Notes under the pieces: generated by a model | What the model saw: only the letters and a program-made list of their open reading frames with translations | What the model was told of the DNA's origin: nothing | The model's database searches: none | Source of the DNA: a virus | Taxonomy: Duplodnaviria > Caudoviricetes | Length of the DNA stretch: 64,000 bases | Direction: 5' to 3' (one strand) | Virus record (IMG/VR): IMGVR_UViG_3300028914_000059 | Span: 116,071-180,070 of that record | Translations under genes and position numbers: made by a program | Shown: piece after piece, positions 10,166-56,936 of the stretch | Numbering within the stretch: the first letter of the stretch is position 1 | Layout: every line of letters starts with the position of its first letter

Positions 10166-10205
10166 TAAAATAACCAGGCTGTGATGGCCTGGTTATTTTT
10201 TAGCT
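10166..10205. terminator. bidirectional terminator
   Basis: AAAATAACCAGGC/GCCTGGTTATTTT between convergent genes. Confidence 0.85.
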
Positions 10206-10206
10206 A

Positions 10207-11031: not shown

Positions 11032-11108
11032 TATTACATACCTCCGGAGGTTATATATAGTAATATAGGCTACAATTCTGCGTATGTCAATATAGAACTT
11101 AATTTCTA
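10990..11108. repeat. 119-bp near-identical direct repeat (second copy 11595-11713)
   Basis: covers promoter, RBS and first 14 codons of two minus-strand genes. Confidence 0.9.
11062..11090 (-). promoter_or_regulatory. sigma70-type promoter TTGACA-N17-TATATT
   Basis: reverse complement reads TTGACA tacgcagaattgtagcc TATATT; similar promoters precede genes starting at 11636, 13727, 21183, 22893 and 32945. Confidence 0.8.
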
Positions 11109-11159
11109 TAATTCACCGGGTTATAACAGCCTGGTTATTTTTAGCTATGGTTAGTTAAT

Positions 11160-11636
11160 TTAATTGTCATTGCCTATGAGATATCCAGTACCTAGACCGC
11201 CTAAAGCACCAGCACCGAGCCCAGCTGCGCCTAAAGCAGTGCCTCGATTCCTGAGGCCTTGAACTAAATCAGTCAGTGTATCCCCTGAGGCACCCAAAGT
11301 GTCCTTAAGTGTTTTCCCGGCTTTATCTATATTGTCCAACATTTCATATGTTTGGTTATTTATTAGTCCCGGAGCAGGATTAGCTGTAAGTAATCCTGAC
11401 AGGGAGCTTAAAACACTACTAGTGTGAGCTTGATCTGCGAGATCAAGGATGTTGTCAATTTCGCTAGCCCCACCTTGCAGTGCGGTTCTTAATTTCTGTT
11501 CCAGAGCTTTAGTTTTAGCAATTCCCTTTATAGAGTCTATTATCCCAGCTTGTTTTTCCATATCTGCAGAATATCCCAGACAGGCTAATTTATACTGAGC
11601 TGCTCTGGCTATATCATTAGCTAATTTATTAATCAT
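11160..11636 (-). CDS. Gly/Ala-rich KxA-motif protein
   Basis: same leader, MEKQAG, C-terminal Gly-rich hydrophobic segment ending NDN. Confidence 0.85.
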   Translation of the reverse strand: MINKLANDIARAAQYKLACLGYSADMEKQAGIIDSIKGIAKTKALEQKLRTALQGGASEIDNILDLADQAHTSSVLSSLSGLLTANPAPGLINNQTYEMLDNIDKAGKTLKDTLGASGDTLTDLVQGLRNRGTALGAAGLGAGALGGLGTGYLIGNDN

Positions 11637-11822
11637 TGTTACATACCCCCAGAGGTTATATATAGTAATATAGGCTACAATTCTGCGTATGTCAATATAG
11701 AACTTAATTTCTACAACCCATCAGGTATAAGTATAATGTTCAAAGGAAACTTAGATTAAGCTTGCTGCTGGCTGTGCCGGGCAACTTAACGATGAAGCCC
11801 TTTAGAACAAATGGTGATTAAT

Positions 11823-39724: not shown

Positions 39725-39926
39725 TGCATGCCTGGGGAGCAGCTCCTTTAGAGTGACCTCTACAAGCGGTCGGAACTCTGGACAAGGAACTGCTCCCTTG
39801 TCATATTTAATCACCTTCATTAGAGGGGGCCAATAGAGATATCTCTATCGGTCTCCTCTCTTTTTATTTCATATTTTTAGGTATAAGTGAATTGTTCCGG
39901 AACTTAAATATATAAAGGAGGCAAAA

Positions 39927-40118
39927 ATGGAAGGAACAATAATAAACAAGGCCTTGGCCAAGAGATTTGAAAATAGTACTCTGGGGGATATTCTATTCAG
40001 TAACGCGAAGTCTGTAAAAAAACATATCAGCTCAGAATATAGACCTAAGGCACCCAGATGGTTTCAACGCCATCAAAGTAAACGAATAGCTGAAGGCTTT
40101 AAAGTTCCCAACGAATAA
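39927..40118 (+). CDS. small basic protein, first gene after the Ubl-operon promoter
   Basis: AAGGAGG RBS after promoter motif at 39880. Confidence 0.7.
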   Translation: MEGTIINKALAKRFENSTLGDILFSNAKSVKKHISSEYRPKAPRWFQRHQSKRIAEGFKVPNE

Positions 40119-40174
40119 GGACGTCAGGGCGGGAGTTTATTTCCTGCCCTTATTTTTTACATAAGGAGTGACAT

Positions 40175-40720
40175 ATGTCAGCAATAGTTAGTACTAATCC
40201 ATGTGCGACAGAGCGATGCCCACGTTGTGGTGCAGGTCCCGAGAATATTTTTATTACCTCGGTAGAATTGGAAGAGACCGACCCACTGGTCTCATATTTT
40301 AAACATTTTGTAGATTTACATGGCTGCAAGAAATGTAAATTTACATGGGCAGAAAATGAAGCTTGTTATACGACAAGTCAGGTAGCCCAGTTTCTTATGA
40401 ACAGCTTTGTATCTCAGGTTAAGGAAGAGCTTAGTAATCGAGTTCAGACGCAGGTGTGGTTTGATGAAGTTACGAAATTGCTAAAGAAAGAAAAAGTATT
40501 ACCGGCCACATATGCTTTTGATAAAGCTAAAGGCTATGCTGAAAATTACCTGGATCTGCTTATAAAAGTCAATGACTTTATAACCAGTTCCAGTAGAGAA
40601 GAGTTGCTCGACCTGTATCAGGCATGGGCAATATATATGGAAGAACCACCAGAAGTGGTACCGGATGTTGATTCATTATCGGATCCATCTACTACTGACA
40701 AGGTTCTAATCGACGATTAA
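40175..40720 (+). CDS. Zn-ribbon protein
   Basis: CPRCG...CKKCKFTW. Confidence 0.8.
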   Translation: MSAIVSTNPCATERCPRCGAGPENIFITSVELEETDPLVSYFKHFVDLHGCKKCKFTWAENEACYTTSQVAQFLMNSFVSQVKEELSNRVQTQVWFDEVTKLLKKEKVLPATYAFDKAKGYAENYLDLLIKVNDFITSSSREELLDLYQAWAIYMEEPPEVVPDVDSLSDPSTTDKVLIDD

Positions 40721-40732
40721 GGAGGAAAACTG

Positions 40733-43700
40733 ATGGATTCAAATGAATTCATGGATAGGTGGAATAACAGACCTAATATAGAGTCAGACTCAGTAATTAG
40801 TCTGGCAAAATTTATGTCAGAAATGGATAACAAGACAGAAGAAGTAGTTACGGCGATAGATCCTAAGGTAACAACACTTCAGTCATCAAAGGCTGTAGCT
40901 GATTTTGTCCTGGACGTTAAGGCTTCAGACAGTTGGATAGAACCTATAGGGATAGCTTTATCCAAAGGTCGTGACAAGTTCATAGAAACCTGGAGAGCTT
41001 ACGTATCAGCCTGTTCTGATATAACAGAAGAAATATCTGATATATTACCGGACAGTGCTGCTGATAATCTTAACGCTACTATAGCTGCCCTGATGGAAAA
41101 ACATGGTCAGGCTAAAAAAGATACACCGGTTACTGATAATCTGTGTACTCTGTTCATTAAGAACTGCTGGGCTGGCTGTTCCCCTGAAATATGTAAAGCC
41201 GTAGATAAGATATATCTTAGCACTGGTAATATGACCAAGACAGCTTTCAAAGCATTGAACCGGGCAGTATATGATGCATTTCTGGCAGCCTCAAATATGC
41301 CATCTGAAAGCATAGTCAAGAGAATAGACTTTGGCAATGCAAACTGTAGGAGGGGCATCATAAACCAGACTCCGGTAGATATTCCAGGAGTAGGTTCTGT
41401 GAAGACTGTTGCAGCTTACAGACATACAATAAGTAATCTCGGAATGGATGAGGTTCAAAAAAATATCCATAATGCTACTGTCCATGACGGTTATCTTGTG
41501 TGGCTGGAAGACAGCAGATGCAAAGCACACACTTTACTGCATCTAGGGAAAGCCCCGGACAGTGGCATAATAGTTCATACGACTTCTGACTATTATCACG
41601 CCTCGACAGCTTCCAGCAGTATTACAAAACCTCAGAAAAGCAAAAAAGAGCTTGAGGAACGTATGAAGGAAGTACGAGCTGAGATAACCGGCCAGGTCGC
41701 AGGAGTAAACTGGGATAAGATGTCCACTATACTGAATGTTCTGGAAGAAATGGTGGATGATACTCTCACCAGCATAATTCGTGAGGTTATCAGACCTGAC
41801 CATGCAATAGAAGATCTAGTCAGTATATTCTTCCATCTATATGCTGATGGGACTATTCTTCGTGCTGGCTATATGCCAACTAACAAGAGAAAAATACCGG
41901 ATCTGGAAAAGAACCCATTCTGTGAACTGTTCCAGAGAGGTCTCTGCATTCCAATAAACTCCAACGGTCAGCAGATAGACAGAAACAGTATAGTAAAATC
42001 TATTATAGGTCTGTTGATAACTCCTGTTGATAAACTCAGAGTTGGTGCCGGTGACGTTATAGGACTGAAGCATATCGAAGATGTGGCTGAGCTTGTGAAG
42101 GTTCCAGTCAATACTGTAAGAGCTGCAGCTTTCCTGTTCGGTGTGACATATTATGATTCACTGGTGTGTTCCAGAGATACCGACACAGAAGGTGGCTCAT
42201 GGGGTGCAGACAGTAAATATAAATATTCACAGGCAGTAAAATTCAATGTCGGGCTTACCAATGTAATAAAAAGTAGTGGCTTCATGGATTTGATAGCTGA
42301 AGGTATAGAAAAATCCTTTAACCTGCTGATAGCTGCATTGAATCAGGTAATATTCCTTCCGGAAAAGTTACCAAGATCTCATGGTATAGCTCTCAGAAGA
42401 ACCCTGATGTCATTTCCTGAACTGTTGATGTTTAATGTTCCTGAACTGCTCAAGACTACTCTTCATAGTGTAATATCTCCAGCAATGGGTATATTGAAGG
42501 ATATAGGATTAAAGGCAGCAGCTGAAATTGCAGCTTCTGATATGGCGGCTACTTCAAGAAAGTACAGAATCTTGTTCGGACTCAGTAATGAGCTTGTTCA
42601 TCTAGTAATCCGTCAGAACAGAAGGGATGCCGGCTGGGAAGAATCTATGAATGCAGCGATTCCATATGCAAGTATGGCAGCACAATTCAAGCACGGTACT
42701 TCATTTCCTATAAACTTCAAGATATATGAAGATGAACCAAGTAAAAACCTGTCTTTGTTACGAGGGACAAGATACCCGGATCAGGAGCAGGAAACAACTG
42801 ATTCAGTCATAGATCAGATGGCTCGCCATGACACACCACCTAAGCTGGAATTTACCAATGCATCCAACACAGCTTTGAATATGTTCGGTATGGTGTCCAA
42901 GATTGCGTCTAACCTCAAAGCATTCTATACTAAGGTTGAAAGCGAAATAGTCAAGAATGTTGAGGATGAACAGCAGAAAAAGGCCTTCCACGAAAGGATA
43001 TGGAGTATGTATCCTGCAATGGAAACAAAACCGGTACTTATCATAAACGATACTATTGGGAATCTGATGTTCAGTACTCACTATGGTGGTATTATCCAGA
43101 AGGCTGATAGGCTTGTTCTTGAAAAAGAATACTGCAGAGCAAGAGCTGCTTTGGAAAGTGCATACTATATAGTAGCAAACAGCAGACCTCTGGTTCCAGC
43201 GGAATTACCTGACAAGGACAAGCTCTGGGAAGACTTTATTGATGATAGATGTGTTGTAACGGATGCTATGCGTAATGCCATCAACAGTAACAAGAAGATG
43301 GTAAAGCCAAGTCTGGAATCAGGCTTTGGATGCAAAACATTCATTGCACGCAGAAGAAATCATCAGACATTCAACCAGGCAGCTAATCGTTTCTGCACGG
43401 AACTGGCAAGGGCTTACGGACATCTTCCCCGATTAGGCTTCCCGTTCCAGGTTGTAAATGATCCGATTGTTGAACTGGATAAAATATATAGTCGGATGAC
43501 GGATTCATATTCTGCTGTAATGACTATAGCCGGACCTGATGCTACCAGCCTAGGCAGACTTCCGGAAATATGGGCTCAGGAAGAAGGGGGTCCTCGTGTT
43601 GCTATGATTCCTGATCTTGAAATAGTAGATATGACATATAGCAACGAAATACTAGAAGGCAGAATAAATGCTGAATCACACATAGAATCTCCCAGAACAC

Positions 43701-45805
43701 AGAACAGGGACACTATACTTGTAGGTCTGAGTCAGACTGAAATAGTAGAAGATACTACTCTGTTGTGGAAAATATCAGCTGCCGGCAACTCTGCTTCTCA
43801 CGGGTATCCTGCGCGTTCATTCTGGTCTATGGAGAAGATAGCCCGAACACCGGATGCCTATGATGGTTATGCAGTTTCAGGATATGTAGCCTCTCAGGCA
43901 GAAAATACGTATCTGAACGGGAATTGTGAAACAGCTATCGAAGAAGCAAACAATGCAGTGTCAATTACATATGCTGTTCTTGAGCCTTGTCTGGACCTGC
44001 CCAAAGTATACGATAAATACTGTGGGTTGCTGAAAGATGAGGAAGAAAAGAAAGCAGAAACTATCTCCACCATTAATATGGCTTCCTGGCCGGAATGGAA
44101 AGATATAGCAGACAGCAGATATACAAGAAGGGAATATGATGAGCAGGTAATGCGAAATGTCATGGACCCTAAAACCCGATTGTTGAAACGTCCGTGCCTG
44201 CTCCCATATGCAGAAACATTTGATATACACTCACATGTATATTTGTATGTAGATATGGGCAGAAGTGGTAGAAACGAAAGGGCGGCATTCTATACTATGG
44301 CTATTCTGGGCCTGAGCAATGTAAAGGAAATGTTCAGAAAAGCTGAGGAGCATGCCAAGGAAACTGAAGAACGCATGAAGCAGAGCAAGTCAGCTGCAGC
44401 CACTGTAAAGACGGATCCTGAGTCCTATATAGAAGGTGAAGTCACCAGAAGAATCAGTGATGTTAAGCTGTCTGCTGCCAAACGTCAGATAGAAGAAAAG
44501 ATGGAACAGCTTCGCAGGATGAAGGATGACTATATCAAGTACTATAACAAGTACAAACCCGAAATCCAGAAATATCGACATACAATGGCTGAGGGACGCG
44601 AACTCAAGGCCAGTGGTGCTATAATGGGAGCTGATGAAGAAAAGCTGAAAGCTATGATAGCTAAGGGAACGCTCCGTGGAGTAAGAATCTATGGAACATA
44701 TCCTAAGCTGAAAGCAATAGCTTATCTGCCATCCACATATATCTGGGTCGGTCCGTTCATCTATAACATAGGTGAAATAGCAGTCAAGATAGACAACTGG
44801 GGCACACCTAACGCTCAGGTCAGGTTCTACGGCAAGTTCTCACCGAAAGGTATGCTGCTGACAGCTCTGGAAGGATGTTCTACATTGCAGGAGGGCGCTA
44901 TGCAATGGATACAGGATGATATAGGAGATTATATAGATGCACCTCACGTAAGAAACAATACTGCCTGTCTAGGTAATATTGATACTGCTCTTCGTCAGGC
45001 CAGCAACGATCTTAGTCTCTCGCAATATATCCAGTACTGTTCCAGATATCTGCATACTGTAAATCTGGGTGACCATTATGGCAAATCCATAGTCAAGTGG
45101 CCAGCTGTCCCAGCTACATTCCACAATCTGGTCAAGTATGGTGCTCTGTGCAGTGGTAGAATAACAGATAGAATAGCAGTAATGACCGGTGCTCCATATA
45201 AGAATGATAATACCGGGTGGGCTATGTTCCTGCGACCTATGAACTGGGATAAGGAATTCGGAGGTAATGATGCTGTAGTCAAGGCTCTATGGGCTCATGC
45301 CAAGAGGGATCTTGATGAAGAAAAGTATGTTACTTCCGACCTTAGTGCAGCTCAGTTGTATGAAATGTATCCTAAATTAAGGGACGCATCTAACCAGTGG
45401 GTGTATGGTACTGTTGTAAGGCCAGCCGTTGACAGTCACGGTTTTGACATAACCTGCTGCCAGGCTGGGGAACGAATCATGCCGGACGTAAGACCAGGAG
45501 TTCCCCAGTACTGTTATGCAGAAATGGAAAGAATATGTGCCAGCGAACATCCGGGGTATGAGTTCTCACGTATGTTTGCACCTGATGCTGGAGTAGCCCG
45601 GAATCAGCTGGCCTGGCAGGACAGAGGGTATACAGACTCTGCTTCTATAAAGCTGGAAATGTTAAAGGGCTCACCTTTGATAGATTATCCAAAAGAAGTA
45701 GATGATGTCGACCCTAAACATCCACCGTTACCAGCATCAGCACTTCTTAAACAGGAAGCGGAATTGGCTGAATGGGAAGATGCTGACGAGCTGCCGTTCG
45801 AGTAA
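40733..45805 (+). CDS. 1690-aa protein with C-terminal prokaryotic E2-like domain
   Basis: coiled coil then PHVRNNTACLGN (Cys1412)...YL.TVN..D.YG....WP; next to JAB, E1 and Ubl genes. Confidence 0.65.
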   Translation: MDSNEFMDRWNNRPNIESDSVISLAKFMSEMDNKTEEVVTAIDPKVTTLQSSKAVADFVLDVKASDSWIEPIGIALSKGRDKFIETWRAYVSACSDITEEISDILPDSAADNLNATIAALMEKHGQAKKDTPVTDNLCTLFIKNCWAGCSPEICKAVDKIYLSTGNMTKTAFKALNRAVYDAFLAASNMPSESIVKRIDFGNANCRRGIINQTPVDIPGVGSVKTVAAYRHTISNLGMDEVQKNIHNATVHDGYLVWLEDSRCKAHTLLHLGKAPDSGIIVHTTSDYYHASTASSSITKPQKSKKELEERMKEVRAEITGQVAGVNWDKMSTILNVLEEMVDDTLTSIIREVIRPDHAIEDLVSIFFHLYADGTILRAGYMPTNKRKIPDLEKNPFCELFQRGLCIPINSNGQQIDRNSIVKSIIGLLITPVDKLRVGAGDVIGLKHIEDVAELVKVPVNTVRAAAFLFGVTYYDSLVCSRDTDTEGGSWGADSKYKYSQAVKFNVGLTNVIKSSGFMDLIAEGIEKSFNLLIAALNQVIFLPEKLPRSHGIALRRTLMSFPELLMFNVPELLKTTLHSVISPAMGILKDIGLKAAAEIAASDMAATSRKYRILFGLSNELVHLVIRQNRRDAGWEESMNAAIPYASMAAQFKHGTSFPINFKIYEDEPSKNLSLLRGTRYPDQEQETTDSVIDQMARHDTPPKLEFTNASNTALNMFGMVSKIASNLKAFYTKVESEIVKNVEDEQQKKAFHERIWSMYPAMETKPVLIINDTIGNLMFSTHYGGIIQKADRLVLEKEYCRARAALESAYYIVANSRPLVPAELPDKDKLWEDFIDDRCVVTDAMRNAINSNKKMVKPSLESGFGCKTFIARRRNHQTFNQAANRFCTELARAYGHLPRLGFPFQVVNDPIVELDKIYSRMTDSYSAVMTIAGPDATSLGRLPEIWAQEEGGPRVAMIPDLEIVDMTYSNEILEGRINAESHIESPRTQNRDTILVGLSQTEIVEDTTLLWKISAAGNSASHGYPARSFWSMEKIARTPDAYDGYAVSGYVASQAENTYLNGNCETAIEEANNAVSITYAVLEPCLDLPKVYDKYCGLLKDEEEKKAETISTINMASWPEWKDIADSRYTRREYDEQVMRNVMDPKTRLLKRPCLLPYAETFDIHSHVYLYVDMGRSGRNERAAFYTMAILGLSNVKEMFRKAEEHAKETEERMKQSKSAAATVKTDPESYIEGEVTRRISDVKLSAAKRQIEEKMEQLRRMKDDYIKYYNKYKPEIQKYRHTMAEGRELKASGAIMGADEEKLKAMIAKGTLRGVRIYGTYPKLKAIAYLPSTYIWVGPFIYNIGEIAVKIDNWGTPNAQVRFYGKFSPKGMLLTALEGCSTLQEGAMQWIQDDIGDYIDAPHVRNNTACLGNIDTALRQASNDLSLSQYIQYCSRYLHTVNLGDHYGKSIVKWPAVPATFHNLVKYGALCSGRITDRIAVMTGAPYKNDNTGWAMFLRPMNWDKEFGGNDAVVKALWAHAKRDLDEEKYVTSDLSAAQLYEMYPKLRDASNQWVYGTVVRPAVDSHGFDITCCQAGERIMPDVRPGVPQYCYAEMERICASEHPGYEFSRMFAPDAGVARNQLAWQDRGYTDSASIKLEMLKGSPLIDYPKEVDDVDPKHPPLPASALLKQEAELAEWEDADELPFE

Positions 45806-45869
45806 TAATGTGATGTAAAGCCTGGGGAGAAATCTCCAGGCTATTCTTAATAAACTAAGGAGTAAAACA

Positions 45870-46853
45870 ATGTCGATGGATTTCGAGTTTGGAAACAAGT
45901 CATTCTGTCCTAGAATTGATGTATCATACATGGCTCAGATGAAAATGGACATGTATGTTGAAATCGCCCAGAAAGAGGTGGGCTGGTATGGTCTCGTCGA
46001 AAGGACGGGTGAGAGTACGTTCTACATACACGATGTATATATGATAGAACAGGAAGTAAATGCTGCAACTACTGAAATAGATCCTATGGGTCTGGCTAAG
46101 CTGAAAACCACTCTGTGGAAGAGTGGCATCATAAACGCTGAAAACCAGTCAAAGATAGGATTGTATCTCTGGGGTCACAGTCATGTCAACATGGGCACAG
46201 GCCCCTCTGGTCAGGATAACAGCCAGCTGGAGAGTATAATAACTACCAGTAATCCACCATTCTTCATCCGATTAATTCAAAACAAGAAGGGTGAGAAGAA
46301 TATCGTGCTGTTCATCAACAATATCCCGATGTTACAGAGTATGACCATCAAGCAGCCCATATGGTCTCCGGAACCTAATCCTGCGGTGGCTGAACTTATG
46401 GAACAGCTGAAAGTTGAAATGAAGGAAAAGGTTAAGGACAAGGCCGTATATACAACACCTGCTTATGGTAACTACTATAGTGGCAAAGGCTATAAAGCAT
46501 ATGACAGTGTCTATGGAACATATGGTCTGTATGATGATGAGTATGATGCCTATGACGCTGGCATAACCACAGCCGAAGACGGTGTCCCTGAAATAACCGG
46601 AACTAAGACTCTTGGTAAGGTAGCCAGAAAGGCCGCTCCAGTCAATAGTTATAAAAGACCAGTTGGCCGCCCACCAAAGGCAGCCGCAGCAGCTAAGAAA
46701 GTTCCCGCAGAAGTTATCCCGCCGGCACCAGCGCTACCTTCACTGGCCAGTGCACGCAAGACTACTGAAGAAATACTAGCGAGGTATTCCCAACAAGCAG
46801 ACTTTCCTAATGTTACTAAAGACGATCTGGGAATACCTGATAAGGTGGTCTAA
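45870..46853 (+). CDS. JAB/JAMM metallopeptidase (deubiquitinase-like)
   Basis: EVGW...HSHVNMGTGPSGQD fits E...HxHx7Sx2D exactly. Confidence 0.9.
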   Translation: MSMDFEFGNKSFCPRIDVSYMAQMKMDMYVEIAQKEVGWYGLVERTGESTFYIHDVYMIEQEVNAATTEIDPMGLAKLKTTLWKSGIINAENQSKIGLYLWGHSHVNMGTGPSGQDNSQLESIITTSNPPFFIRLIQNKKGEKNIVLFINNIPMLQSMTIKQPIWSPEPNPAVAELMEQLKVEMKEKVKDKAVYTTPAYGNYYSGKGYKAYDSVYGTYGLYDDEYDAYDAGITTAEDGVPEITGTKTLGKVARKAAPVNSYKRPVGRPPKAAAAAKKVPAEVIPPAPALPSLASARKTTEEILARYSQQADFPNVTKDDLGIPDKVV

Positions 46854-46892
46854 AATTCTGGTATAAGTGAATTGTTTGAAAGGAGATTTATC

Positions 46893-47603
46893 ATGGCTGA
46901 AATGACTGAAATCTCCGCCCAAGGTCTTTGGAGACAGATGGGGTTCTTCACCCCTGACTGGCTCGGAGATAACAAAGTTCACATTGTAGGAGTCGGCGCC
47001 ACAGGCTCCCACATTGCAGATACTCTAGCCTCCATGGGTATCAGAAACCTTGAGGTCTATGATTTCGATAAGGTAGAGGAACATAATCTACCGAATCAGA
47101 TTTATGAGCTGCGTGATATCGACACCCTCAAAGTAGATGCTCTTAAGCGTCATATAAAAGAAAAGATGGGTTATGATATCATCACGCATAATGAGAAGGT
47201 CGAAAAAATAGAAAACCTCAAGGGCTACCTGGTTCTCTGTACTGACAGCATGGCTGTCCAGAAGCAGATACTGTTAAGCAGTGGAGCCAGAAACCCGGAC
47301 TGCCTCGGGGTGATCGAAACTCGCATGGGTATAGATCAGGGCAGAGTATACTTTTTTGACCCCCGCCTAAAAGGACACTTGAAAAAGTGGGGTGAAAGAT
47401 GGTATAGTGATGAAGAAGCAGGAGAATCTCCATGTACGTTGAGAGCAATATCAATGACAGCAAAAATGATAGCAGGTATTGCCTCAGCGAGGATTATCCT
47501 GGATCAGCGGCGTCTCCACGAAGAAAATTCTGGAGATGTCATAATTTACAATGAAACAATCATTCATTGTAATGGGAAGTCCTTAAACTATGTTTGGGAC
47601 TGA
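46893..47603 (+). CDS. ThiF/E1-like adenylyltransferase
   Basis: GVGATGS, DFDKVEEHNLPNQ, LCTDS; distal SPC candidate catalytic Cys. Confidence 0.92.
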   Translation: MAEMTEISAQGLWRQMGFFTPDWLGDNKVHIVGVGATGSHIADTLASMGIRNLEVYDFDKVEEHNLPNQIYELRDIDTLKVDALKRHIKEKMGYDIITHNEKVEKIENLKGYLVLCTDSMAVQKQILLSSGARNPDCLGVIETRMGIDQGRVYFFDPRLKGHLKKWGERWYSDEEAGESPCTLRAISMTAKMIAGIASARIILDQRRLHEENSGDVIIYNETIIHCNGKSLNYVWD

Positions 47604-47641
47604 GTTCGAAAAAAATAAAATAGTAAAACAGGAGTAAAACA

Positions 47642-47851
47642 ATGAAACATGTTGAAGTAGGTCGCGTTAGTGGTCAAACCGTAGGAATTTATTTGCAGGA
47701 TGGCGAAACTGTAGGAACAGCTTTAGAAAGAGCCGGTATTGAACTTCAAGACAAGGAAGAAATAAGTATCGACGGTAATAAAGTTTCTACTTCCTATGTT
47801 CCTGACGATCACGACAACATCGTTATAACCATGCAGGTAAAAGGTAACTGA
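47642..47851 (+). CDS. ubiquitin-like (beta-grasp) protein
   Basis: 69 aa, GETVGTAL...IDG...DNIVI pattern, ends VKGN. Confidence 0.8.
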   Translation: MKHVEVGRVSGQTVGIYLQDGETVGTALERAGIELQDKEEISIDGNKVSTSYVPDDHDNIVITMQVKGN

Positions 47852-47910
47852 TAATCCTTTCAAACAGCTAGAATAAAAGCCCGGGCTAAATGCCTGGGCC
47901 TCTAAATTGA

Positions 47911-47944
47911 GAAGGGTCCCTGAGAAGGACCCTTTTCTTTACCT
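47911..47944. terminator. terminator between convergent operons
   Basis: GAAGGGTCC/GGACCCTTTTC hairpin followed by TTTACCT. Confidence 0.75.
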
Positions 47945-47949
47945 GGTAA

Positions 47950-50778
47950 TTATTTTTCCTGATTTACTCCGGCGCCTAGATATGCACATGAAACATTATC
48001 TGGCAGGTAACAGGCTATACCGGATATTTCCAGGTAGTCATCCGAAGATCTGGATACTGAAGTTCCATCCACTTTGTACCAGGTATATGACATCTGGAAC
48101 GGGTTGACTACATGAGTAGCACCTAAACTGTGCAGATATTCTATCAGTTCGGATTCTTTAAGAACCCCATCTCCTGTTATATTAAAGATGAAATTTCTTA
48201 CCATAGCAACCAGACCCGGTATTTCAGCATCAGCATAATAACCGAAGCTTAAGGAAACATAAACTGGTTCGTAGTGCTTTATTATTATGTCTGTGCAGAT
48301 TACACGGTTAGCATCATCCAGAACGAATCTCTGAATATCTGCCATTTCCGGGACATATTCATAATTAACCTGGAGAGTCTGCCCGACATAAGCCGGATCT
48401 ATATGCAAATTTAATGATTCATATGTAGAGAATCTGGTGTTAGCTGATTCACTCTGGAGCTCCCACTTATTTTTAGGTAAATATATTCCAGTAGTATCCT
48501 GAGTCAGTTTGTCAATAAGTTCTATTGATGTTATCCTCAGTACCGGGATATCACCCCAGGTAATACCGTTAATAGGTGTATTTTCTGCGGCATCTTCTAT
48601 AACCATGGAACCGTTAGTAATATTACCTGATTTAATGTAAGTATCGACTTTACCCCCTATGTGATAACCCATTACGGTGTCTCTAAGCATTTCCGGATCA
48701 CCGAAACCTATAGAGACTATATCCTTTATAGAAGAGAACTGTTCTGTAAGAACGTAAGCTATCGAACGCTTGGTAACCAGATCTCTGGTCGTAATAGCCA
48801 TTTTTATTCTTTCATAAAGTTCAGCATTAGATTCAGAAGTGCTTCCACCAGTAAACTGTGTCGGGTTAGTAACAGAAACAACACCTGAAGGCAAGCTCAT
48901 AGTACTTTTAGTTATTTCTCCAGATCTTATATTGTATAAAATACCTTCAGCTCCAGCAGCTGCTGGTATATCCATATAATAAAGTCCATTCTCATAATTA
49001 AGAGACATTTCTTCTGCTGTAATATAAGTACCTATGGTAGTATAGAATTTAAGATTGGCGTTAGTCACAAATTCTATATCAGCAGGAACCATTACTTCCT
49101 GTGGATCATTAAAATATAAGCGAACTACACCAGAGGCATATGAACCAGCTCGTCTGTTAACGAACAAGTTTGCTGCCAACGCATCTGCAGCGTCATTACT
49201 CAACTCAGCCAGATTAGCGAAGCTGAGATTCTTTCTCATTTCTTCCAATTCTGTTACAAAAGGTTTTAGTAGTCCGACAAGAGGTTTAACTGCTATATCC
49301 AGAACAGCAGAACCTTCACGTCCGATATTCATGCTTGGGTCACAAGTTTCCAGCCCTCTACGAATCATACCTTCAATATCTATGTTAGTCATTGGAATAA
49401 ATCTGGATGTTCTTGAAGCTCTGTGCAGCAGTGAGGGTAAATCTGTTGCCTGAATAGTTCTGCTACGTTCGTAAGCACCCACATCCGGGGCGGCGCCTAA
49501 ATATTCTTCACCATAAGTCCTGCCAGCATCTATGCAGGGGGACGTACCAGAAATCATGAAATTACCCCATGGATAGTCATGAAGACCTTCGTACTCAGGA
49601 TTAATTGCTCTTACATATTCTACAACATTTACCTGCCCACCACTCAGAGTGCCGGATAATTCCTCACAGGAATACCATATAATATGATCAAGATATATAA
49701 TTGAAGTCCCGGCAGCATAAAAAGCATAATAACAGTCAGTAACCAGGGTATTTACAACATTGACATTGGCAGATCCGGTAGTCCCGATACCTCTGGTTCG
49801 GCTAGTAACAAATGTTCCCGGGGGATACTCATAGGTATATGTAGTTCCACTGGCAGATATAGAACAGGAATATATGTCGATATCACTGTCTACGACCCTG
49901 ATTCCAGTTCTACATTTATAGAAAGTAGAGTGGGTTATTTTATGTTCCTTAGAGGTATCCTTAACGCCTCGTACTTCTATCCCGATATGACTTTTTGATA
50001 ATTGACAACTATTAAACACAAAGGACGGTACGTAATCACCCTCCCCCTCAACATATATACCTACGGCATTTCCGTCAATATCGTCTGTAAGCACATGGGC
50101 TAGAAACCCATCTATAGTTACTTTTTTTACGTCAGGATATATATGAATAGCATTTAATCTATAGTTGTTAGCCTGGATATCTTTGAATTCACAGGAAAAT
50201 ACTTCGTAATCAGCATTACCCTTTAAAGCTATAATGTCATAATCAGTGTTAAATGAATTGTGCAGCGAAGATGCTATAACAGAAGATACCGAAGATTTAA
50301 CACAGCCATCTAATAAAAACATAGAACCGGTAGAGCCTTCTGGAGCATTAGCCACAGACCATGAAGAATCTATATGACAACCACCGATGGAAAATTTATT
50401 GCAGCTTTCAGCCTTTACAGCATGAAGTATTACGCCACTATCATCTTTACAGGAAGTAAAATTTGCACCCACTAGCCTGCAGTCAGTGCATTCAGAGAAA
50501 GATACAATACTATCAGAAGTCCCAACATTGACTGGTTCCCATACAGCCCTGCTATAAGGTTCTGAACTGGTTGTAAGAAATCTTAAGGTAAGATTGGTCC
50601 TACCTTCAAATACTACAGGGGTATCCTGGAATACTGTTCTGGTATCCGGATTATTCACACGTATTTCGTCACCATCCCCAGCTACGGCAGCTACAAAACT
50701 TAATGTTCTGTAGGGATTGCTGGCAGTGCCGTCACCATTCTGATTGTCACCATGTATAACATCTACATATATATTCAT
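47950..50778 (-). CDS. baseplate J-like wedge protein with N-terminal beta-helix
   Basis: YVD...GD...GDGT...PY.T and SPCIDAG...APDVGAYE flank a beta-helix; C-half has GG...ES..EL..R and G.VD.YI. Confidence 0.8.
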   Translation of the reverse strand: MNIYVDVIHGDNQNGDGTASNPYRTLSFVAAVAGDGDEIRVNNPDTRTVFQDTPVVFEGRTNLTLRFLTTSSEPYSRAVWEPVNVGTSDSIVSFSECTDCRLVGANFTSCKDDSGVILHAVKAESCNKFSIGGCHIDSSWSVANAPEGSTGSMFLLDGCVKSSVSSVIASSLHNSFNTDYDIIALKGNADYEVFSCEFKDIQANNYRLNAIHIYPDVKKVTIDGFLAHVLTDDIDGNAVGIYVEGEGDYVPSFVFNSCQLSKSHIGIEVRGVKDTSKEHKITHSTFYKCRTGIRVVDSDIDIYSCSISASGTTYTYEYPPGTFVTSRTRGIGTTGSANVNVVNTLVTDCYYAFYAAGTSIIYLDHIIWYSCEELSGTLSGGQVNVVEYVRAINPEYEGLHDYPWGNFMISGTSPCIDAGRTYGEEYLGAAPDVGAYERSRTIQATDLPSLLHRASRTSRFIPMTNIDIEGMIRRGLETCDPSMNIGREGSAVLDIAVKPLVGLLKPFVTELEEMRKNLSFANLAELSNDAADALAANLFVNRRAGSYASGVVRLYFNDPQEVMVPADIEFVTNANLKFYTTIGTYITAEEMSLNYENGLYYMDIPAAAGAEGILYNIRSGEITKSTMSLPSGVVSVTNPTQFTGGSTSESNAELYERIKMAITTRDLVTKRSIAYVLTEQFSSIKDIVSIGFGDPEMLRDTVMGYHIGGKVDTYIKSGNITNGSMVIEDAAENTPINGITWGDIPVLRITSIELIDKLTQDTTGIYLPKNKWELQSESANTRFSTYESLNLHIDPAYVGQTLQVNYEYVPEMADIQRFVLDDANRVICTDIIIKHYEPVYVSLSFGYYADAEIPGLVAMVRNFIFNITGDGVLKESELIEYLHSLGATHVVNPFQMSYTWYKVDGTSVSRSSDDYLEISGIACYLPDNVSCAYLGAGVNQEK

Positions 50779-50779
50779 A

Positions 50780-51232
50780 TCATCTTATCCTGATTTGATT
50801 TGCTAGATTTACATCGGCACTTTCTCCAGCTACCGAAGTTACCAATATTCTGGCATCTATTCTCTGATCAACATTATTCCAGTTTACAGAGAGGAGAGTC
50901 ATAGATTTAAGACGCTCATCCGCCGGAATGGACTTCCCCGCGGTTTCAGCTTCCTGATTCTGGAAGATATCCTTCTCAGCCTTTCTAACCACCTGTGACA
51001 GGTCAGAAGCTACTCTAGGCATATCTGAAATATAAAGTCCTGATCTGATGTATGCTCTGGCTCCGCCACCATAATTAGGGGCGAAAATATCACTGCCGGC
51101 AGTAGTCAGCACCGTCTTTACGCATAACTGTAAGAGTGCTTCCATCCCCTCTGCCTTTGCAGGCACGGTATTAAATGAAAAAGTAACTCTTCTGGTTATC
51201 GGATGAATAGCTATAACATTAAGATCGGACAT
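50780..51232 (-). CDS. gp25-like baseplate wedge subunit
   Basis: LT..GS..F.P.YG motif; adjacent to baseplate J-like gene. Confidence 0.75.
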   Translation of the reverse strand: MSDLNVIAIHPITRRVTFSFNTVPAKAEGMEALLQLCVKTVLTTAGSDIFAPNYGGGARAYIRSGLYISDMPRVASDLSQVVRKAEKDIFQNQEAETAGKSIPADERLKSMTLLSVNWNNVDQRIDARILVTSVAGESADVNLANQIRIR

Positions 51233-51234
51233 AG

Positions 51235-53202
51235 TTAACTCCCTAAAGCTCTACTCTTATTTATAGCTTTATCTTTATTCTTTTTCAACTCTGCCTCGGT
51301 CTTAGCTTCCTGAATACTTTTATCATTAGCCTCCTGCTTAGCCAGTTCTTTAGTTTCTGCACCATCTAAATAAGACATAATAGCATGTAGTGTAGCACTC
51401 TCCTTCAGGGTCATATTCTGCATCTGAGGAATAGTAGAAGCCACGGACTTCCTGAAAATACCGGAAAGGGTTAGTTGCTCTCTATCTAGAACACAATTAA
51501 GATATTGGTTAAGATCAGCATTACCTAGAGCTTTAGCTGCAGATGGGGATACTGATTTTATAACATCCATTATAGTGCCTACATCACTAGGTATCTTAGG
51601 GTTAAATACACCTAACAAACCATCCACATCTGTAATAGCTTTATTAGTTGCATTTCTCTGGGCATCAACAATGCCTCTGACCTGAGCTAGAACATTGCTG
51701 GTATCACGACAGAAATTCCGTATACTGTCTACCTTACTCATATCTGGCATGGGGAGCACAGACCTTATAGAGGCCAGTGAAGTATCTATACCTGAAGTAA
51801 CCCTGTCAAGAATCCAGTTCTGCCATTCCAGCTGCGGTTGCTGACTTGCAGGATGCTCATAGGACATAGAATCTTTATTAGGCATATTAGAAGTATCTTT
51901 GACATATTTACCTGGATTAAGTACGAAAGCATCAAGTACTAATGATTTTATAGCTGAGGCTACCTTTGCCCCATTTTCCACTTTCCCCCACCCGGCATAC
52001 ATAGTATCTTTCAAATCCGTTATGGCTTTAGTAAAATTATCCAGACGCTTATTTTCTGGTAAAGCTTTATCCAACAACTGAGCAGGAACTCCATCAAGTT
52101 TAACTTTTCCAAGAATAACTATAGAAGCTACCAGAGTATCACGTATTTTTCTGTAGCATCTCTGAAACTCACTGGAGTTGGATTTAGCAGATCTGAGTTT
52201 TTCTGCATAAGTATCTATAATATTAAGATTATCATAAAGTTCCTGCCATTGAATATTCCTGGTCTCTTCAGTATATTTTTCAACACAGTCGATAAATCCA
52301 TCACACATAGTTACCATGCGATCAATATTTTCATCCAGAGATCTGAGATAATCTCCTACCTGCTCTGATCTGGCCTGTATAGTTGCTCCATAGGTCCCAT
52401 CATTTACACCAAATACAGGAGTAAGCTCTATCGGTGGATCTACTATAGTATCTTCTGTGCCAAAAAATGTAGCTGCTAAACCTGATTCCATGGCTACTGC
52501 ATATTTAGCTTCCAATGGATCAGTAAATAGGGATAACAACCTCTTCAATCTTGCGTCTGACGGTTGTTTAACATGCTCACTTAAAGCAGTTTGTAGAGCC
52601 GAAAGTTCTTCTTTGCCAGATACTACACAGGTGTTTACTTTACCTAACCACTCATTCAGATACTTATCGGCTTTATCCCTGGTTAAATATTTTGCTGTAG
52701 AAAGCAGGAACTGTTCGGTATCAAAAGTAGTGTTATAAATCAAATCACATACAAGATTTACTGCTTTGTTTGCTGCTGTAAGTTTACCTAAAAGACCTTC
52801 CTTGCCGGAGCACATGAACGCTTCTCTAAACTGATGGGCCTGGTCAGATAACATAACCAGTTCATTAGCAGATAAAAATCTTTTATATAAGATGTCCTTA
52901 CCTTCTTTTCTAGAGGCTGGGGCCCCCAGCTCTAGGAAAGTAGCAGCGAAGTCGTCTTTAAGAGAGCCAAAATCATCAATAAGGCTCTTAGCCATATTTA
53001 AGGTATCTGTGATACCTAATTTCTGTAAAGCTTTGGCAGCAGTACTCTTAGCAAGTTCTTTGGCCTTATCCTTTAACAAAGAGACACCCTTGCTTAAAGA
53101 AATGGATTTAGTTACTTCTTTAACTTTATCCATTCTGGTGATGTCTAGCTGAACTGCCTGTTTAAATGCCGATTTAGCCTGGGCTATAGCTTCATTAGCC
53201 AT
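51235..53202 (-). CDS. helical protein of unknown function, probably virion-associated
   Basis: 655 aa within tail operon. Confidence 0.75.
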   Translation of the reverse strand: MANEAIAQAKSAFKQAVQLDITRMDKVKEVTKSISLSKGVSLLKDKAKELAKSTAAKALQKLGITDTLNMAKSLIDDFGSLKDDFAATFLELGAPASRKEGKDILYKRFLSANELVMLSDQAHQFREAFMCSGKEGLLGKLTAANKAVNLVCDLIYNTTFDTEQFLLSTAKYLTRDKADKYLNEWLGKVNTCVVSGKEELSALQTALSEHVKQPSDARLKRLLSLFTDPLEAKYAVAMESGLAATFFGTEDTIVDPPIELTPVFGVNDGTYGATIQARSEQVGDYLRSLDENIDRMVTMCDGFIDCVEKYTEETRNIQWQELYDNLNIIDTYAEKLRSAKSNSSEFQRCYRKIRDTLVASIVILGKVKLDGVPAQLLDKALPENKRLDNFTKAITDLKDTMYAGWGKVENGAKVASAIKSLVLDAFVLNPGKYVKDTSNMPNKDSMSYEHPASQQPQLEWQNWILDRVTSGIDTSLASIRSVLPMPDMSKVDSIRNFCRDTSNVLAQVRGIVDAQRNATNKAITDVDGLLGVFNPKIPSDVGTIMDVIKSVSPSAAKALGNADLNQYLNCVLDREQLTLSGIFRKSVASTIPQMQNMTLKESATLHAIMSYLDGAETKELAKQEANDKSIQEAKTEAELKKNKDKAINKSRALGS

Positions 53203-53910
53203 TTAATACCCCCTCAAAGCACCGCTGCTTTTAAGCCTACCAGCTATCTTATTTTTTACCTGTACAACATAACTTGGACTGACATGAAGCTTCATTGCTA
53301 TTTCCTGGTTAGATAAAGAGGGCTTACCTTCAAGACCATAAATATACTCCATAACTTCCTTTTCGGTACCGGCTAATTCGGCATGAAGAAGGATAATGTT
53401 ATCATCTAGTTCTGAAGCATTACTATCAAAAATATTAGTATAGTTACTATCCTGAATGAGATCCTGGCGCAATTCTTTACTCAGCAATTTAAGCTGTTTA
53501 ACTGGAACTTTCATTTCATCAGCTATCTCATTATATGTAGGCGGTCTGCCAAGTTCATTTTCAAGATTATCCTTTATACGATTAAACTTACCTATCTGGA
53601 TAATTCTAGGTTCTGGTATAGTCCCCATGTTCTGATGGTTATAGACATATCTATGGAGCTTCTGACCGGCGGTGTTATATATGAATGTATTCAACTGAGA
53701 CTTATCAGGGTCATAGTTTGGCAGATTGTCTATAGTAAGCTTTATCATCTGGGCCTTGATAGCAGAACGCGGTAGGTTACCAGTCATTTTGTTAACATGA
53801 GTTTCTATAATAGGATTAAGTGAAGTCAATAATGGCTTCAGAGTGTTGTTACCAGGGTTGGCTTTCCAAGCTTTCCAGAGCTCTACTTCTTTTTGTTTAT
53901 TTTCATCCAT
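53203..53910 (-). CDS. sigma-70 family sigma factor
   Basis: YDP.K...TF (region 2), LENELGRPPT..EIA (region 3), E..V....YGL.....S..EIA..L.VS (region 4). Confidence 0.85.
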   Translation of the reverse strand: MDENKQKEVELWKAWKANPGNNTLKPLLTSLNPIIETHVNKMTGNLPRSAIKAQMIKLTIDNLPNYDPDKSQLNTFIYNTAGQKLHRYVYNHQNMGTIPEPRIIQIGKFNRIKDNLENELGRPPTYNEIADEMKVPVKQLKLLSKELRQDLIQDSNYTNIFDSNASELDDNIILLHAELAGTEKEVMEYIYGLEGKPSLSNQEIAMKLHVSPSYVVQVKNKIAGRLKSSGALRGY

Positions 53911-53930
53911 TATTGAATTTCTCCTTTATA

Positions 53931-56900
53931 TTAAAAAGACACTGCATGGTTGTAACTCGTTGGTGATTCCTCATTAACCTCTGCTTTAGTGAGAGCGGCG
54001 TGTACTTCTGGCTCTAATTCCCATAAAACTGATAGTGGAGAATAACATCGTTTACCATCATTAATTTCAAAATGTAAATGGGGGCTTGAACTGCGTCCAG
54101 TATTACCCAGCTCCGCAATGACCTGACCCTTAGTAACCTGAGTACCTACTGTGATATTAGGCTTTATTGTCCTTAAATGAGCATATATATAAACAAGTTT
54201 ACCTGTTTTTATATATAATCTTAAACCATAACCCTCGCCATAATTTTTTGGGTTCTGATACCCCATTCTAACTACAATACCTGAGGTTGCACTAGTTATT
54301 TGCATACCCGGATCTCCCCCAATGTCTACTCCATGGTGGGTTGGGCTCTTAGCATAATTTCTAGGACCAAAGGCAGACGATATATGGCCCCCCTTCACTA
54401 GAACAGTAGTGCGTTTCTTCATAATCTTCTTCCAGGGTATCTTGCCTTCAGCAAAGCCGCTACTTGTTGACGGTGTACTGGATGTATCAGTATTTGTAGC
54501 ACTATAATTTTCTACCCCAGAAGCCACTCCCATATCTGGTATATCTTCTCTAGGACTAACCACCAAATCTTCATCTCTACCATCTTCTACAAGAATACCG
54601 CCGATAAGACCACTAACTGTTCCTCTATATACAGCTTGGACATAATCCAATACTATTTTTTGTTTATCTATAGTGGTATGCAGCATGGTGACACCGTCTG
54701 CATTTACTTCCCCAACACTATCCTTACCGTTTCCACCGTTATATGGAGCAAACACTCCACCTGTAGTGGCTGCTTTCCACACTTTAATGGCGGAGCTGTC
54801 CCATGTCTGAAATTCCGGAGTACATTCATATATATTCTGAAAATAGTCTTCCATAGATATATGTGATTTCCTGGAGCGGTAGTCATTCACAAATAAGAGT
54901 TTATCTGGAGCTTTGTTATATCTATTAACTATAGCGGCTGTTAATTTTGCTGTTTTATATGTTATTTCATTTACACCATCAAAAGTTACATTTTCATCAT
55001 CATATATAGAACCACATCCAAATAGTTCCTGATAGACCATGGGGCCAATGTTTTCAACGCTGATATTATCGGCATTAATCCAAGTTGGGGGTTGTGGAAT
55101 AGTATCCATTCCGTTAAATATCATCTTAGGGTAAGCAATAGAGGCTTGACACCCTACTTGACCATCCGGGGTTACTGAATACGTATAGTTTTCCAGAATA
55201 CCGTGGATAGAAAATACATCATCAACTAAAAGTATAGGCATACCGACAGCCATATCGTCAGTGAGAGAACAAGTAACAGTACAACTTCTAGTCCCGAATT
55301 TAGACATCGAATGTATAAAATTAGCTAAAGAAGCCTGGACCTCAACTGAAGCAAATGACAATGGGTAAAACGGTATCTGAGCCACGTTAGGTACTACACC
55401 GCACATAGCTTCTTCTTCAGTAAGAACATTGAAAGCCTTCTCTGAATTTTCTATAGCTTCAGTTATAGCATTTTTCAGAGCATCACCCTTCTTTGGCTCA
55501 TCCTTACTATAGCTATCTTCATGAAACAGCAAGGCAGTTGTCTGAGCCAGAAATGGGTCTGTAGTATCTGCTATATAAGCAGCCGAAGATGCCATTGCTA
55601 CATTAGGATCACTTAATTCCGCTTCTGGATTCATAAGAACACTTGGTCGTTCCAGAGCTGGTGGGTAGGAAACAATACTTCTTGTTGGTTCTGTCCAGGC
55701 ATTAAAATTTAATGATATCCCATTGTACATATTAGGAAACAGGACATTGCACTTCGGTGGAATGCAGGAAGTCATCTCAGGGTGGAAGCAGATAGATCTA
55801 TCAACTTTTAATGGGTCTACAGATACTTTACAGAAAAACATATCCATCATCTTAGATATAAGGCCATATAAAGGGAACGAAGCGTGCTGCTGTCCAATCA
55901 TATCTTCTGCCATTCTTAAAATAGCCTGTCCGAAATTATATTCTGTCCCCTGTTGTTCGGAGGGCTTCATTTCCTTAGTATCTGTTTTAGTATTTTCATA
56001 GGCATATATTTTAAACTGATCTGTTCTAAAGACTGGCATAGCATACATCTGTTGATATACATGCAACTGCTCATATTCACGTTTTAAATAATCATCGGAG
56101 TTTTCATATGCAGTAGCTAACACTTCCTTAAAAGCGGACAGCGGATTAGGTTCTCCCTCAGCTGTTGTTATATTTTTTCCGGCGTCTATCCCAGCCAGAG
56201 CTCGTTGAAATACACCGTAAATAGTAGTGTAGGAACGTTCTGAATCCTTGATAAATTCTCTGGACATATCTGCCTGCTGATTTCTGGTAGCAGACAACAT
56301 AACGCTAGGAGCAGTATAACCACGCAGCCTTGTGCTGGACGCTATAAACTGAGCAGAAGCAGCATTAATTGCTTTAGTGGTTGCTTCCTGCTGCTGTTTA
56401 TCAATATAATCTTTTTGAGCTTTCTTAGCCTCTGCCATGGCGTCTTGACTTTTCTTGAGATTTTCAGCGCTGTCGGAAGAAGCGTATTCATTCAAAGCCT
56501 CTAAATATTTATCTCTCTTTTCTTTAAATTCTTTTTTAGCATTTGAGACTTCTTTATCTGTTTTTGGAGATCTTAAAGTAGAAGAAACTACCGTAGCAGT
56601 AAATGAATTTCTGTTAACTTCTGAACAGATCATAGTGGCCCATCGGCAATCAACAGAAGCACAATCTATAGATAAATGCCGCTCGCCCATTATTTTAGAA
56701 TAATTTTTAGTAATTAATAGACCGTGAAATCTAAGGAAAGGTTTATCATTATCCTGTTTTTTAAATAAGGCTACTTTCATTCCACGCACTAACAATAAGC
56801 CCTGTGGTAGTGGCGGAATAGTTGCATGCAGTCTGGCGCCGGCATTTACAGACACAGAAACCTGGAGTGAAGATAAGGGAACCCTCACCCCTTCTATAAA

Positions 56901-56936
56901 TAAGAAATATTCTAATAAACTACCTGTTATTCTCAT
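53931..56936 (-). CDS. baseplate hub-like protein with C-terminal M23 peptidase
   Basis: ISS.FG.R, HHGVD, YAHL, G.TG.S..PHLHFE. Confidence 0.8.
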   Translation of the reverse strand: MRITGSLLEYFLFIEGVRVPLSSLQVSVSVNAGARLHATIPPLPQGLLLVRGMKVALFKKQDNDKPFLRFHGLLITKNYSKIMGERHLSIDCASVDCRWATMICSEVNRNSFTATVVSSTLRSPKTDKEVSNAKKEFKEKRDKYLEALNEYASSDSAENLKKSQDAMAEAKKAQKDYIDKQQQEATTKAINAASAQFIASSTRLRGYTAPSVMLSATRNQQADMSREFIKDSERSYTTIYGVFQRALAGIDAGKNITTAEGEPNPLSAFKEVLATAYENSDDYLKREYEQLHVYQQMYAMPVFRTDQFKIYAYENTKTDTKEMKPSEQQGTEYNFGQAILRMAEDMIGQQHASFPLYGLISKMMDMFFCKVSVDPLKVDRSICFHPEMTSCIPPKCNVLFPNMYNGISLNFNAWTEPTRSIVSYPPALERPSVLMNPEAELSDPNVAMASSAAYIADTTDPFLAQTTALLFHEDSYSKDEPKKGDALKNAITEAIENSEKAFNVLTEEEAMCGVVPNVAQIPFYPLSFASVEVQASLANFIHSMSKFGTRSCTVTCSLTDDMAVGMPILLVDDVFSIHGILENYTYSVTPDGQVGCQASIAYPKMIFNGMDTIPQPPTWINADNISVENIGPMVYQELFGCGSIYDDENVTFDGVNEITYKTAKLTAAIVNRYNKAPDKLLFVNDYRSRKSHISMEDYFQNIYECTPEFQTWDSSAIKVWKAATTGGVFAPYNGGNGKDSVGEVNADGVTMLHTTIDKQKIVLDYVQAVYRGTVSGLIGGILVEDGRDEDLVVSPREDIPDMGVASGVENYSATNTDTSSTPSTSSGFAEGKIPWKKIMKKRTTVLVKGGHISSAFGPRNYAKSPTHHGVDIGGDPGMQITSATSGIVVRMGYQNPKNYGEGYGLRLYIKTGKLVYIYAHLRTIKPNITVGTQVTKGQVIAELGNTGRSSSPHLHFEINDGKRCYSPLSVLWELEPEVHAALTKAEVNEESPTSYNHAVSF

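Follow-up and report, generated by a model that had tools for sequence, protein, structure and literature searches.

We describe a set of four consecutive, co-oriented genes in the genome of an uncultured phage from the cattle gut (IMG/VR virus record IMGVR_UViG_3300028914_000059; 180,070 bp, 93% complete), analysed here in a stretch of 64,000 nucleotides (nt; record positions 116071–180070; hereafter, the window). On the + strand these genes encode, in order, a 1690-amino-acid (aa) giant protein with a ubiquitin-conjugating (UBC or E2)-like domain in its C-terminal part, a JAB metalloprotease, a ubiquitin-activating (E1)-like enzyme and a 69-aa ubiquitin-like protein (Ubl), which we refer to as the tag. 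Together they are likely to form a phage-borne four-enzyme cassette for ubiquitin-like conjugation, in which the tag would pass to the E1, from there to Cys1412 of the giant protein and finally to targets chosen by the N-terminal region of that protein; we infer every chemical step and the adaptor role from fold, motifs and synteny. An earlier reading of this DNA (the original prediction), made from its letters alone, had assigned the four genes to E2, JAB, E1 and Ubl, and each assignment held up when tested. Its view that a phage carries the pathway agrees with the source of the contig, an IMG/VR virus record.

E1 genes of this type were found at 45 phage and bacterial loci. At 19 of these the complete set of four lies on one strand within 6 kb, and many of the others are truncated contigs. 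Because the same four families recur together at 19 of the 45 E1 loci, the four-gene association is not a matter of chance. The cassette family is widespread in phages and bacteria, and is undescribed in the literature and the family libraries that we searched.

An E2-like domain within a giant protein

The gene for the giant protein (40733–45805, + strand) encodes an N-terminal region of ~1200 aa, a charged coiled-coil linker (about residues 1200–1300), the E2-like domain (residues 1300–1465; 44630–45127) and an acidic tail. The PHV and CLGN motifs reported earlier lie at residues 1404 and 1412 and contain Pro1404-His1405 (44945–44947) and Cys1412 (44966–44968), respectively. The point on which the original prediction had been made to turn beforehand was a UBC/E2 fold for residues ~1310–1460. 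A confident AlphaFold2 model of residues 1300–1510, built with HMMER homologues as the alignment (pLDDT 88, pTM 0.81), is UBC-like over residues ~1300–1465. Its elements follow the order helix 1, four-strand meander, two-helix insert, a loop with His1405 and Cys1412, and helices. The pLDDT for residues 1300–1690 predicted from the single sequence was 36.6. A Foldseek comparison of the E2-domain model with the PDB returned nothing at E ≤ 0.001, and the list consisted almost entirely of E2 enzymes. UFC1 and the UBC domain of UBE2O are among the fold matches of the domain; a structure search of BFVD returned unnamed phage proteins only (best E = 3.5e-3).

Sequence profiles point the same way. When the E2 domain alone, from 17 diverse family members (alignment A6), was compared as a profile with all PDB sequences, the top ten matches were all E2s: nine were UBE2L3/UbcH7 (E = 0.018–0.042) and one was UBE2L6 (E = 0.43). 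The alignment spans helix 1 to the active site and sets the invariant cysteine on the catalytic cysteine of UbcH7 (E = 0.018), and the invariant Pro-His falls on the Pro-Asn of the HPN motif, with His replacing Asn. Pro1404, His1405 and Cys1412 are invariant in 17–25 sequences; Gly1414 and Asp1447 are invariant too. The domain has the features of the E2 superfamily, namely a UBC fold and a cysteine in the loop after strand 4 that is preceded by an HPN-type motif, and residues 1300–1465 are very probably an E2 domain. The two-helix insert between strand 4 and the active-site loop is found in the giant proteins and is missing from shorter family members.

An exhaustive HMMER search with residues 1300–1690 yielded 24 representative clusters, nearly all of proteins of 1262–1731 aa. 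No Pfam Prok-E2 model matched the E2-like domain in the 35 members scanned. The giant protein had no match in Pfam, PHROGs, NCBIfam or PADLOC, its N-terminal part had none in Pfam, PHROG or PDB sequences, and neither the full-length profile (A1) nor the N-terminal 1200 aa found one in the PDB. A protein atlas offered no usable match to the N terminus and, for the E2 part, leads that scored below 0.9, one of which was a cluster with Prok-E2_D in 11% of its members. Word-index searches with short E2 forms recovered close relatives only, and neither the giant protein nor alignment A2 detected related loci when used as a query against viral contigs.

Protease, activating enzyme and tag

The second gene (45870–46853, + strand) encodes a 327-aa protein with a JAB/JAMM metalloprotease domain at about residues 1–175. 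The exact JAMM motif claimed for it is present (HSHVNMGTGPSGQD, HxHx7SxxD), together with an upstream glutamate (Glu36) that is invariant in relatives. Across eight sequences, Glu36, His103, His105, Ser113 and Asp116 are all invariant and make up a JAMM/MPN+ zinc site. A profile of the JAB family has Rpn11 as its best PDB match (3e-9), followed by archaeal Rpn11-like proteins, CSN5, JAMM1 and BRCC36; the match to the PADLOC JAB model is 0.013. Beyond the domain, residues of about 190–327 (46440–46853) form a low-complexity tail rich in Tyr, Gly and Asp that is followed by a basic K-R-x-[VF]-G-x-P motif, also present at loci L019 and L013. This motif may be a docking or nucleic-acid-binding element.

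The E1 (46893–47603, + strand; 236 aa) is a single adenylation domain of the ThiF/MoeB/UBA5 type. Its predicted membership of the ThiF/E1 family is borne out by Pfam ThiF (4.4e-18; 65.8 bits against a cut-off of 28.1), and its score lies far under the equivalog cut-offs for ThiF and MoeB. The invariant residues are Arg14, Gly33, Gly35, Gly38, Asp57, Asp59, Asn65, Lys80, Asp118 and Cys181; the GxGxxG loop (46989–47006), the Arg finger and the Asp and Lys that bind Mg and ATP are common to Escherichia coli ThiF and mark the protein as an E1/ThiF enzyme. Cys181 (47433–47435) aligns with E. coli ThiF Cys184, the cysteine that becomes covalently linked to ThiS. The zinc-binding CxxC pairs of ThiF and MoeB are absent. 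UBA5 is the nearest relative in the PDB (3.7e-18), followed by MoeB and ThiF, with BubCD and Cap2 more distant; MccB, PaaA and the ThiF-type protein entries 9EGB–9EGD are also among the relatives.

The last gene (47642–47851, + strand) encodes the 69-aa tag, which ends in VKGN (Lys67-Gly68-Asn69). As expected of the beta-grasp-like protein that had been proposed, it can be aligned over its whole length with E. coli ThiS and the Ubls of the family. The family alignment (A4) shows no variation at Lys67 or Gly68 and, with ThiS added, still none at Gly68. In Pfam the tag has a weak Ub-Mut7C match (0.0018), and a relative weakly matches ThiS and TGS. In most family tags the C terminus is [KR]-G-N; K-G-A also occurs, as does G-G plus 1–5 variable residues. 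In extended or tandem tags, with single, double or triple repeats, the sequence runs on past the conserved Asn. The position of Asn69 is taken by the terminal Gly in ThiS and by the second Gly in GG-type members.

Type II BilA of the bacterial Bil systems carries Ala98 after the reactive Gly97, and the JAB protease BilC must remove Ala98 before conjugation (PMC10557695). From the KGN, KGA and GG-plus-extension ends and the tandem tags, we infer that the JAB processes the tag of the phage cassette, too, and removal of the residue after Gly68 is the simplest reading of the KGN end. A complex prediction for two E1 copies, the tag and the E2 domain scored 0.03, which speaks neither for nor against such an assembly.

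A family spread across phages and bacteria

To find family members, we compared the E1 with viral contigs, scanned metagenomes for a degenerate DNA pattern of the E2 motif and ran the E1 alignment against a set with one genome for each prokaryotic species; the open reading frames (ORFs) of the loci that were found were then scanned with profiles built from the family alignments. The E1 is 205–265 aa in length at nearly all 45 loci, and a JAB and a Cys-bearing UBC domain are its conserved partners at 24. The gene order E2–JAB–E1 is almost universal; the tag follows the E1 (as here), comes first (the Bil order) or, in one case, precedes the JAB. The E2 domain either is a protein of its own (132 aa at the phage locus L002) or lies at the end of proteins of 160–1700 aa. 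Loci L019, L013 and L014 keep the giant–JAB–E1–Ubl layout of the cattle-gut phage, with E1s that are 55% identical.

Some phage loci depart from this layout. Two cassettes are present on L003, an IMG/VR phage contig of 187 kb: one (1050–4899) encodes a 675-aa protein with the E2 domain, a JAB-like protein of 218 aa, an E1 and a tandem di-Ubl, and the other (8276–11674) encodes a 532-aa protein with the E2 domain, a JAB and an E1, with no adjacent tag. In two further phage loci (L005, 7267–12010; L006, 2552–7302), genes for a Ubl, a 477–481-aa protein, a JAB and an E1 are followed directly by a gene for a 367-aa reverse transcriptase (YADD).

Because copies are present in bacterial chromosomes, the family is not phage-specific. 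Saccharibacteria are Candidate Phyla Radiation (CPR) bacteria with small genomes; in metagenome-assembled contigs from them (L021 and L030), the cassette is flanked by MurJ and LepA and is near RpoB, with no phage genes among the neighbours scanned. In other metagenome-assembled chromosomes it lies beside a TonB receptor or, in Bacteroidota, beside a type IV secretion system (T4SS) coupling protein. Two copies from Ignavibacteria/Bacteroidota (L031, 6576–7283; L032, 6560–7303) have a Cys-rich extension (about 10 Cys per 60 residues) after the E2-like domain, which may be a zinc-binding, E3-like module. Among the contigs examined, the giant N-terminal fusion was seen in phage-like ones only.

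None of the models in Pfam, NCBIfam, PHROG or PADLOC recognises the E2 domain and the tag of this family. Our literature searches returned no paper on a phage-encoded E1–E2–JAB–Ubl cassette, which is not proof that none exists.

Genomic setting

The interval that had been predicted to hold the system, 39880–47851, contains the four genes at the positions claimed, all on the + strand, and the zinc-ribbon gene that had been placed ahead of them; it also contains a 63-aa ORF, between its start and the zinc-ribbon gene, that the original prediction did not list. At its head is a promoter-like 17-mer (GGTATAAGTGAATTGTT; 39880–39896, + strand), and an identical copy (46860–46876, + strand) precedes the E1 and Ubl genes. 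The E1 ORF has alternative starts at 46872 and 46893 (243 and 236 aa); the ATG at 46893 is the most likely start because the second 17-mer begins at 46860. The core of this motif, GGTATAAG, occurs at 18 sites in the window (3662–46867) against 2.25 expected. The whole genome has 29 sites on the + strand and none on the − strand; most of them fall between genes, and many directly follow terminator-like T-runs. The motif is probably a promoter class of this phage that serves its non-structural genes.

The cassette is the last part of a long block of non-structural genes on the + strand that includes ribonucleotide reductase and that also carries the motif. Directly downstream, on the − strand, is a convergent baseplate/tail block (Baseplate_J, 2.2e-9; phrog_6, 1.9e-21; and an M23-peptidase protein). 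The terminator that had been noted after the Ubl gene was confirmed as two hairpins, the second with a U-run (47879–47937, + strand; minimum free energy −38.7 kcal/mol, z = −4.2), and is common to the cassette and the convergent baseplate gene. Within the baseplate/tail block (47950–56936, − strand), one protein (942 aa) has a beta-helix as well as a Baseplate_J region, and another (1001 aa) ends in an M23-type peptidase domain, as in tail lysins and tape-measure proteins. Motif and strand group the cassette with replication-phase genes, probably, and not with virion genes. Because the promoter-like motif is common to the non-structural genes, the cassette probably acts in the infected cell during replication and is not part of the virion.

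The 181-aa zinc-ribbon protein (40175–40720, + strand) has the expected CPRC...CKKC knuckles, its gene lies 12 nt upstream of that for the giant protein, and it is a possible accessory of the cassette. Its homologues are confined to close relatives (66–97% identity in a word-index search). The 63-aa ORF (39927–40118, + strand) is followed by a hairpin and T-run (40126–40150). It is probably outside the system because in a goat-gut relative the region 39907–40134 is swapped for 229 unrelated letters. Another relative has loose ends at both borders of this region, which resembles a small replaceable gene slot. Neither protein matched Pfam, PHROGs, NCBIfam or PADLOC.

Near-identical DNA is present in bovine, goat and sheep gut metagenomes, and a blastn comparison with GenBank phages gave no match. 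Strains that are 93–95% identical differ at 44398–44401, 45740–45744 and 45870 by compensating or in-frame insertions and deletions only, so the reading frames of the giant protein and the JAB are kept open. A contig from a sheep-gut RNA library covers the 3′ part of the E1 gene and the whole Ubl gene, a weak hint that the two are transcribed; coverage in this run (X24) is patchy, and the difference in depth between E1–Ubl and the rest is not readable as an expression level.

Comparison with known conjugation systems

The closest parallels in organization are the BilABCD operons of Types I and II (PMC10557695; PMC11601596), which similarly have separate Ubl, E2, JAB and E1 genes with the relative order E2–JAB–E1 and no E3 gene. 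The Type II tag also has one residue after its reactive Gly, and Bil E2s likewise contain an extra element between strand 4 and the catalytic Cys. However, the cassette is not a Bil system, from which it differs in the architecture of its E1 and the position of the conserved His of its E2. Bil E1s combine tandem IAD–AAD domains with a CYS domain that is mobile and with a Zn site, whereas the cassette E1 is a single ThiF-like domain; Bil E2s have a conserved His after the Cys, whereas the only invariant His of the cassette E2s lies 7–8 residues before it, as in the classical HPN motif. Moreover, the phage E2 is fused to 1300 extra residues. BilD and BilC were not among the listed PDB profile matches of the cassette E1 and JAB.

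The minimal E1 with one adenylation domain is shared with the UBA5–UFC1 pair of the UFM1 pathway and with ThiF and MoeB. In contrast to UBA5, it has no C-terminal E2-binding tail and, unlike all of these systems, the cassette has its own JAB protease. Bub operons and Type II CBASS also pair E1, E2 and peptidase functions for conjugation in prokaryotes, and their BubCD and Cap2 proteins are detectable relatives of the cassette E1. Bub (6E/DUF6527) uses Ser/Tyr oxyesters and a DUF6527 protease, whereas the E1 and E2 cysteines of the cassette are both invariant and no cassette protein matches DUF6527; membership of Bub was rejected on these grounds. In Type II CBASS, Cap2 is an E2–E1 fusion and a CD-NTase is the 'tag', whereas the cassette encodes E2 and E1 by separate genes, on either side of that for the JAB, and its tag is a true beta-grasp protein. 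Cap2 models match only the adenylation core of the E1, the flanking ORFs that were scanned included no CD-NTase, and this assignment was also rejected. The cassette also falls outside the five types of operon in Iyer et al. 2006.

UBE2O and BIRC6, the nearest analogues in function, are eukaryotic E2/E3 hybrids in which the UBC domain lies near the C terminus of a very large protein. The phage giant protein has the same arrangement and no sequence similarity to them beyond the UBC fold.

Proposed pathway and alternative explanations

In the pathway that we propose, the tag would initially carry Lys-Gly-Asn at its C terminus, and the JAMM protease would cut off the residue or residues after Gly68, as it would in the tandem and extended tags of relatives. 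The minimal E1, which is probably homodimeric, would adenylate the freed C terminus with ATP–Mg and load the tag onto Cys181, from which it would be transferred to Cys1412 of the UBC-fold domain and joined to lysines of target proteins; the JAB may also be able to take the tag off its targets. The N-terminal region of ~1200 aa and the coiled coil may serve as a built-in substrate adaptor, making the protein an E2/E3 hybrid like UBE2O or BIRC6. We propose that the large variable region ahead of the E2 domain selects the targets because there is no E3 gene, and because the two-helix insert of the giant proteins sits exactly where the proposed recognition loop of Bil E2s lies; direct target recognition without an E3, through the loop between strand 4 and the Cys, has been proposed for those enzymes (PMC10557695).

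The purposes suggested in the original prediction, modification of host or phage proteins or a counter to host Ubl or CBASS-type defences, are tentative. The targets are probably host proteins or those of a competitor, modified inside the infected cell, to judge from the setting of the genes. It is possible that the same biochemistry is defence or exclusion cargo and is not turned against the host; it would modify the proteins of rival phages, in the way that Bil modifies a tail protein, or work with an abortive-infection partner. The known bacterial Ubl operons are antiphage (PMC11601596), and this explanation would fit the sporadic occurrence of the family in bacterial chromosomes (beside MurJ/LepA and RpoB or a T4SS coupling protein) and the joining of the cassette to a reverse transcriptase at L005 and L006. 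However, no CapH/CapP or WYL-type regulator was seen adjacent to the cassette, which is under the phage's own abundant promoter-like motif, and the giant N-terminal fusion was seen in phage-like contigs only. More tentatively, we suggest that the cassette is a weapon of the phage: expressed along with the replication genes, the 1690-residue E2/E3 hybrid would mark chosen host proteins, such as defence or proteostasis factors, in the infected cell.

It is doubtful that the reactive end of the tag is Asn69 itself, adenylated by the E1 as the C-terminal Asn of MccA is by MccB and leading to a succinimide or other non-canonical linkage, with the JAB trimming beyond the Asn. Most tags do end exactly in [KR]-G-N, the Asn is unusually conserved and is kept even when extra residues or repeats follow, its alignment with the last Gly of ThiS and the second of the GG-type members could be read in this way, and MccB and PaaA are among the PDB relatives of the E1. 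Against this, KGA and GG-plus-extension members belong to the same family and Type II BilA also has one residue after its reactive Gly; furthermore, the 236-aa E1 lacks the N-terminal peptide clamp of MccB, and the invariant cysteines of E1 and E2 favour a thioester relay.

A role in virion assembly is improbable. The cassette abuts the baseplate/tail block, a layout that recurs at L019 (where the neighbouring genes lack identities), and the giant protein might be a structural or assembly factor. Moreover, a Ubl–JAB pair takes part in the tail assembly of lambdoid phages, as the I and K proteins of lambda and T1 (PMC1779556). The Ubl and JAB of the cassette might work likewise. However, lambda has neither E1 nor E2 and its JAB is fused to NlpC/P60; the cassette is on the strand opposite to the baseplate genes and has the promoter-like motif of non-structural genes, copies in bacteria are surrounded by housekeeping genes and have no phage genes nearby, and the giant protein matches no structural PHROG. 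Finally, a sulfur-carrier or cofactor pathway of the ThiS/MoaD type with a non-catalytic E2-like domain is very unlikely: although ThiF/MoeB and ThiS are the nearest sequence relatives of the E1 and the tag, the flanks contain no gene for ThiG, ThiH, MoaE, a rhodanese or a desulfurase (in line with the earlier report of no adjacent sulfur-acceptor or cofactor gene), the tag ends in KGN and not GG, and the JAB and Cys-bearing UBC domain are conserved partners in 24 loci.

Discussion

The E1–E2–Ubl pathways of bacteria (CBASS, Bil and Bub) have so far been known as host defences against phages; here the full machinery is on the side of the phage, and it carries a giant putative targeting region. 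The family extends across phages, Saccharibacteria, Bacteroidota and Ignavibacteriota, and its parts look nearer to the eukaryotic and archaeal type than do those of Bil: the Cys is preceded by an HPN-like motif, the JAB resembles Rpn11 and the E1 resembles UBA5. If active, the cassette would be a compact and easily expressed system for asking what a bacterial virus gains by protein tagging, and the family is one more lineage through which to trace how ubiquitin cascades originated. If the tentative reading of the cassette as a phage weapon is true, a family common to phages and CPR bacteria could bear on how E1–E2 cascades arose.

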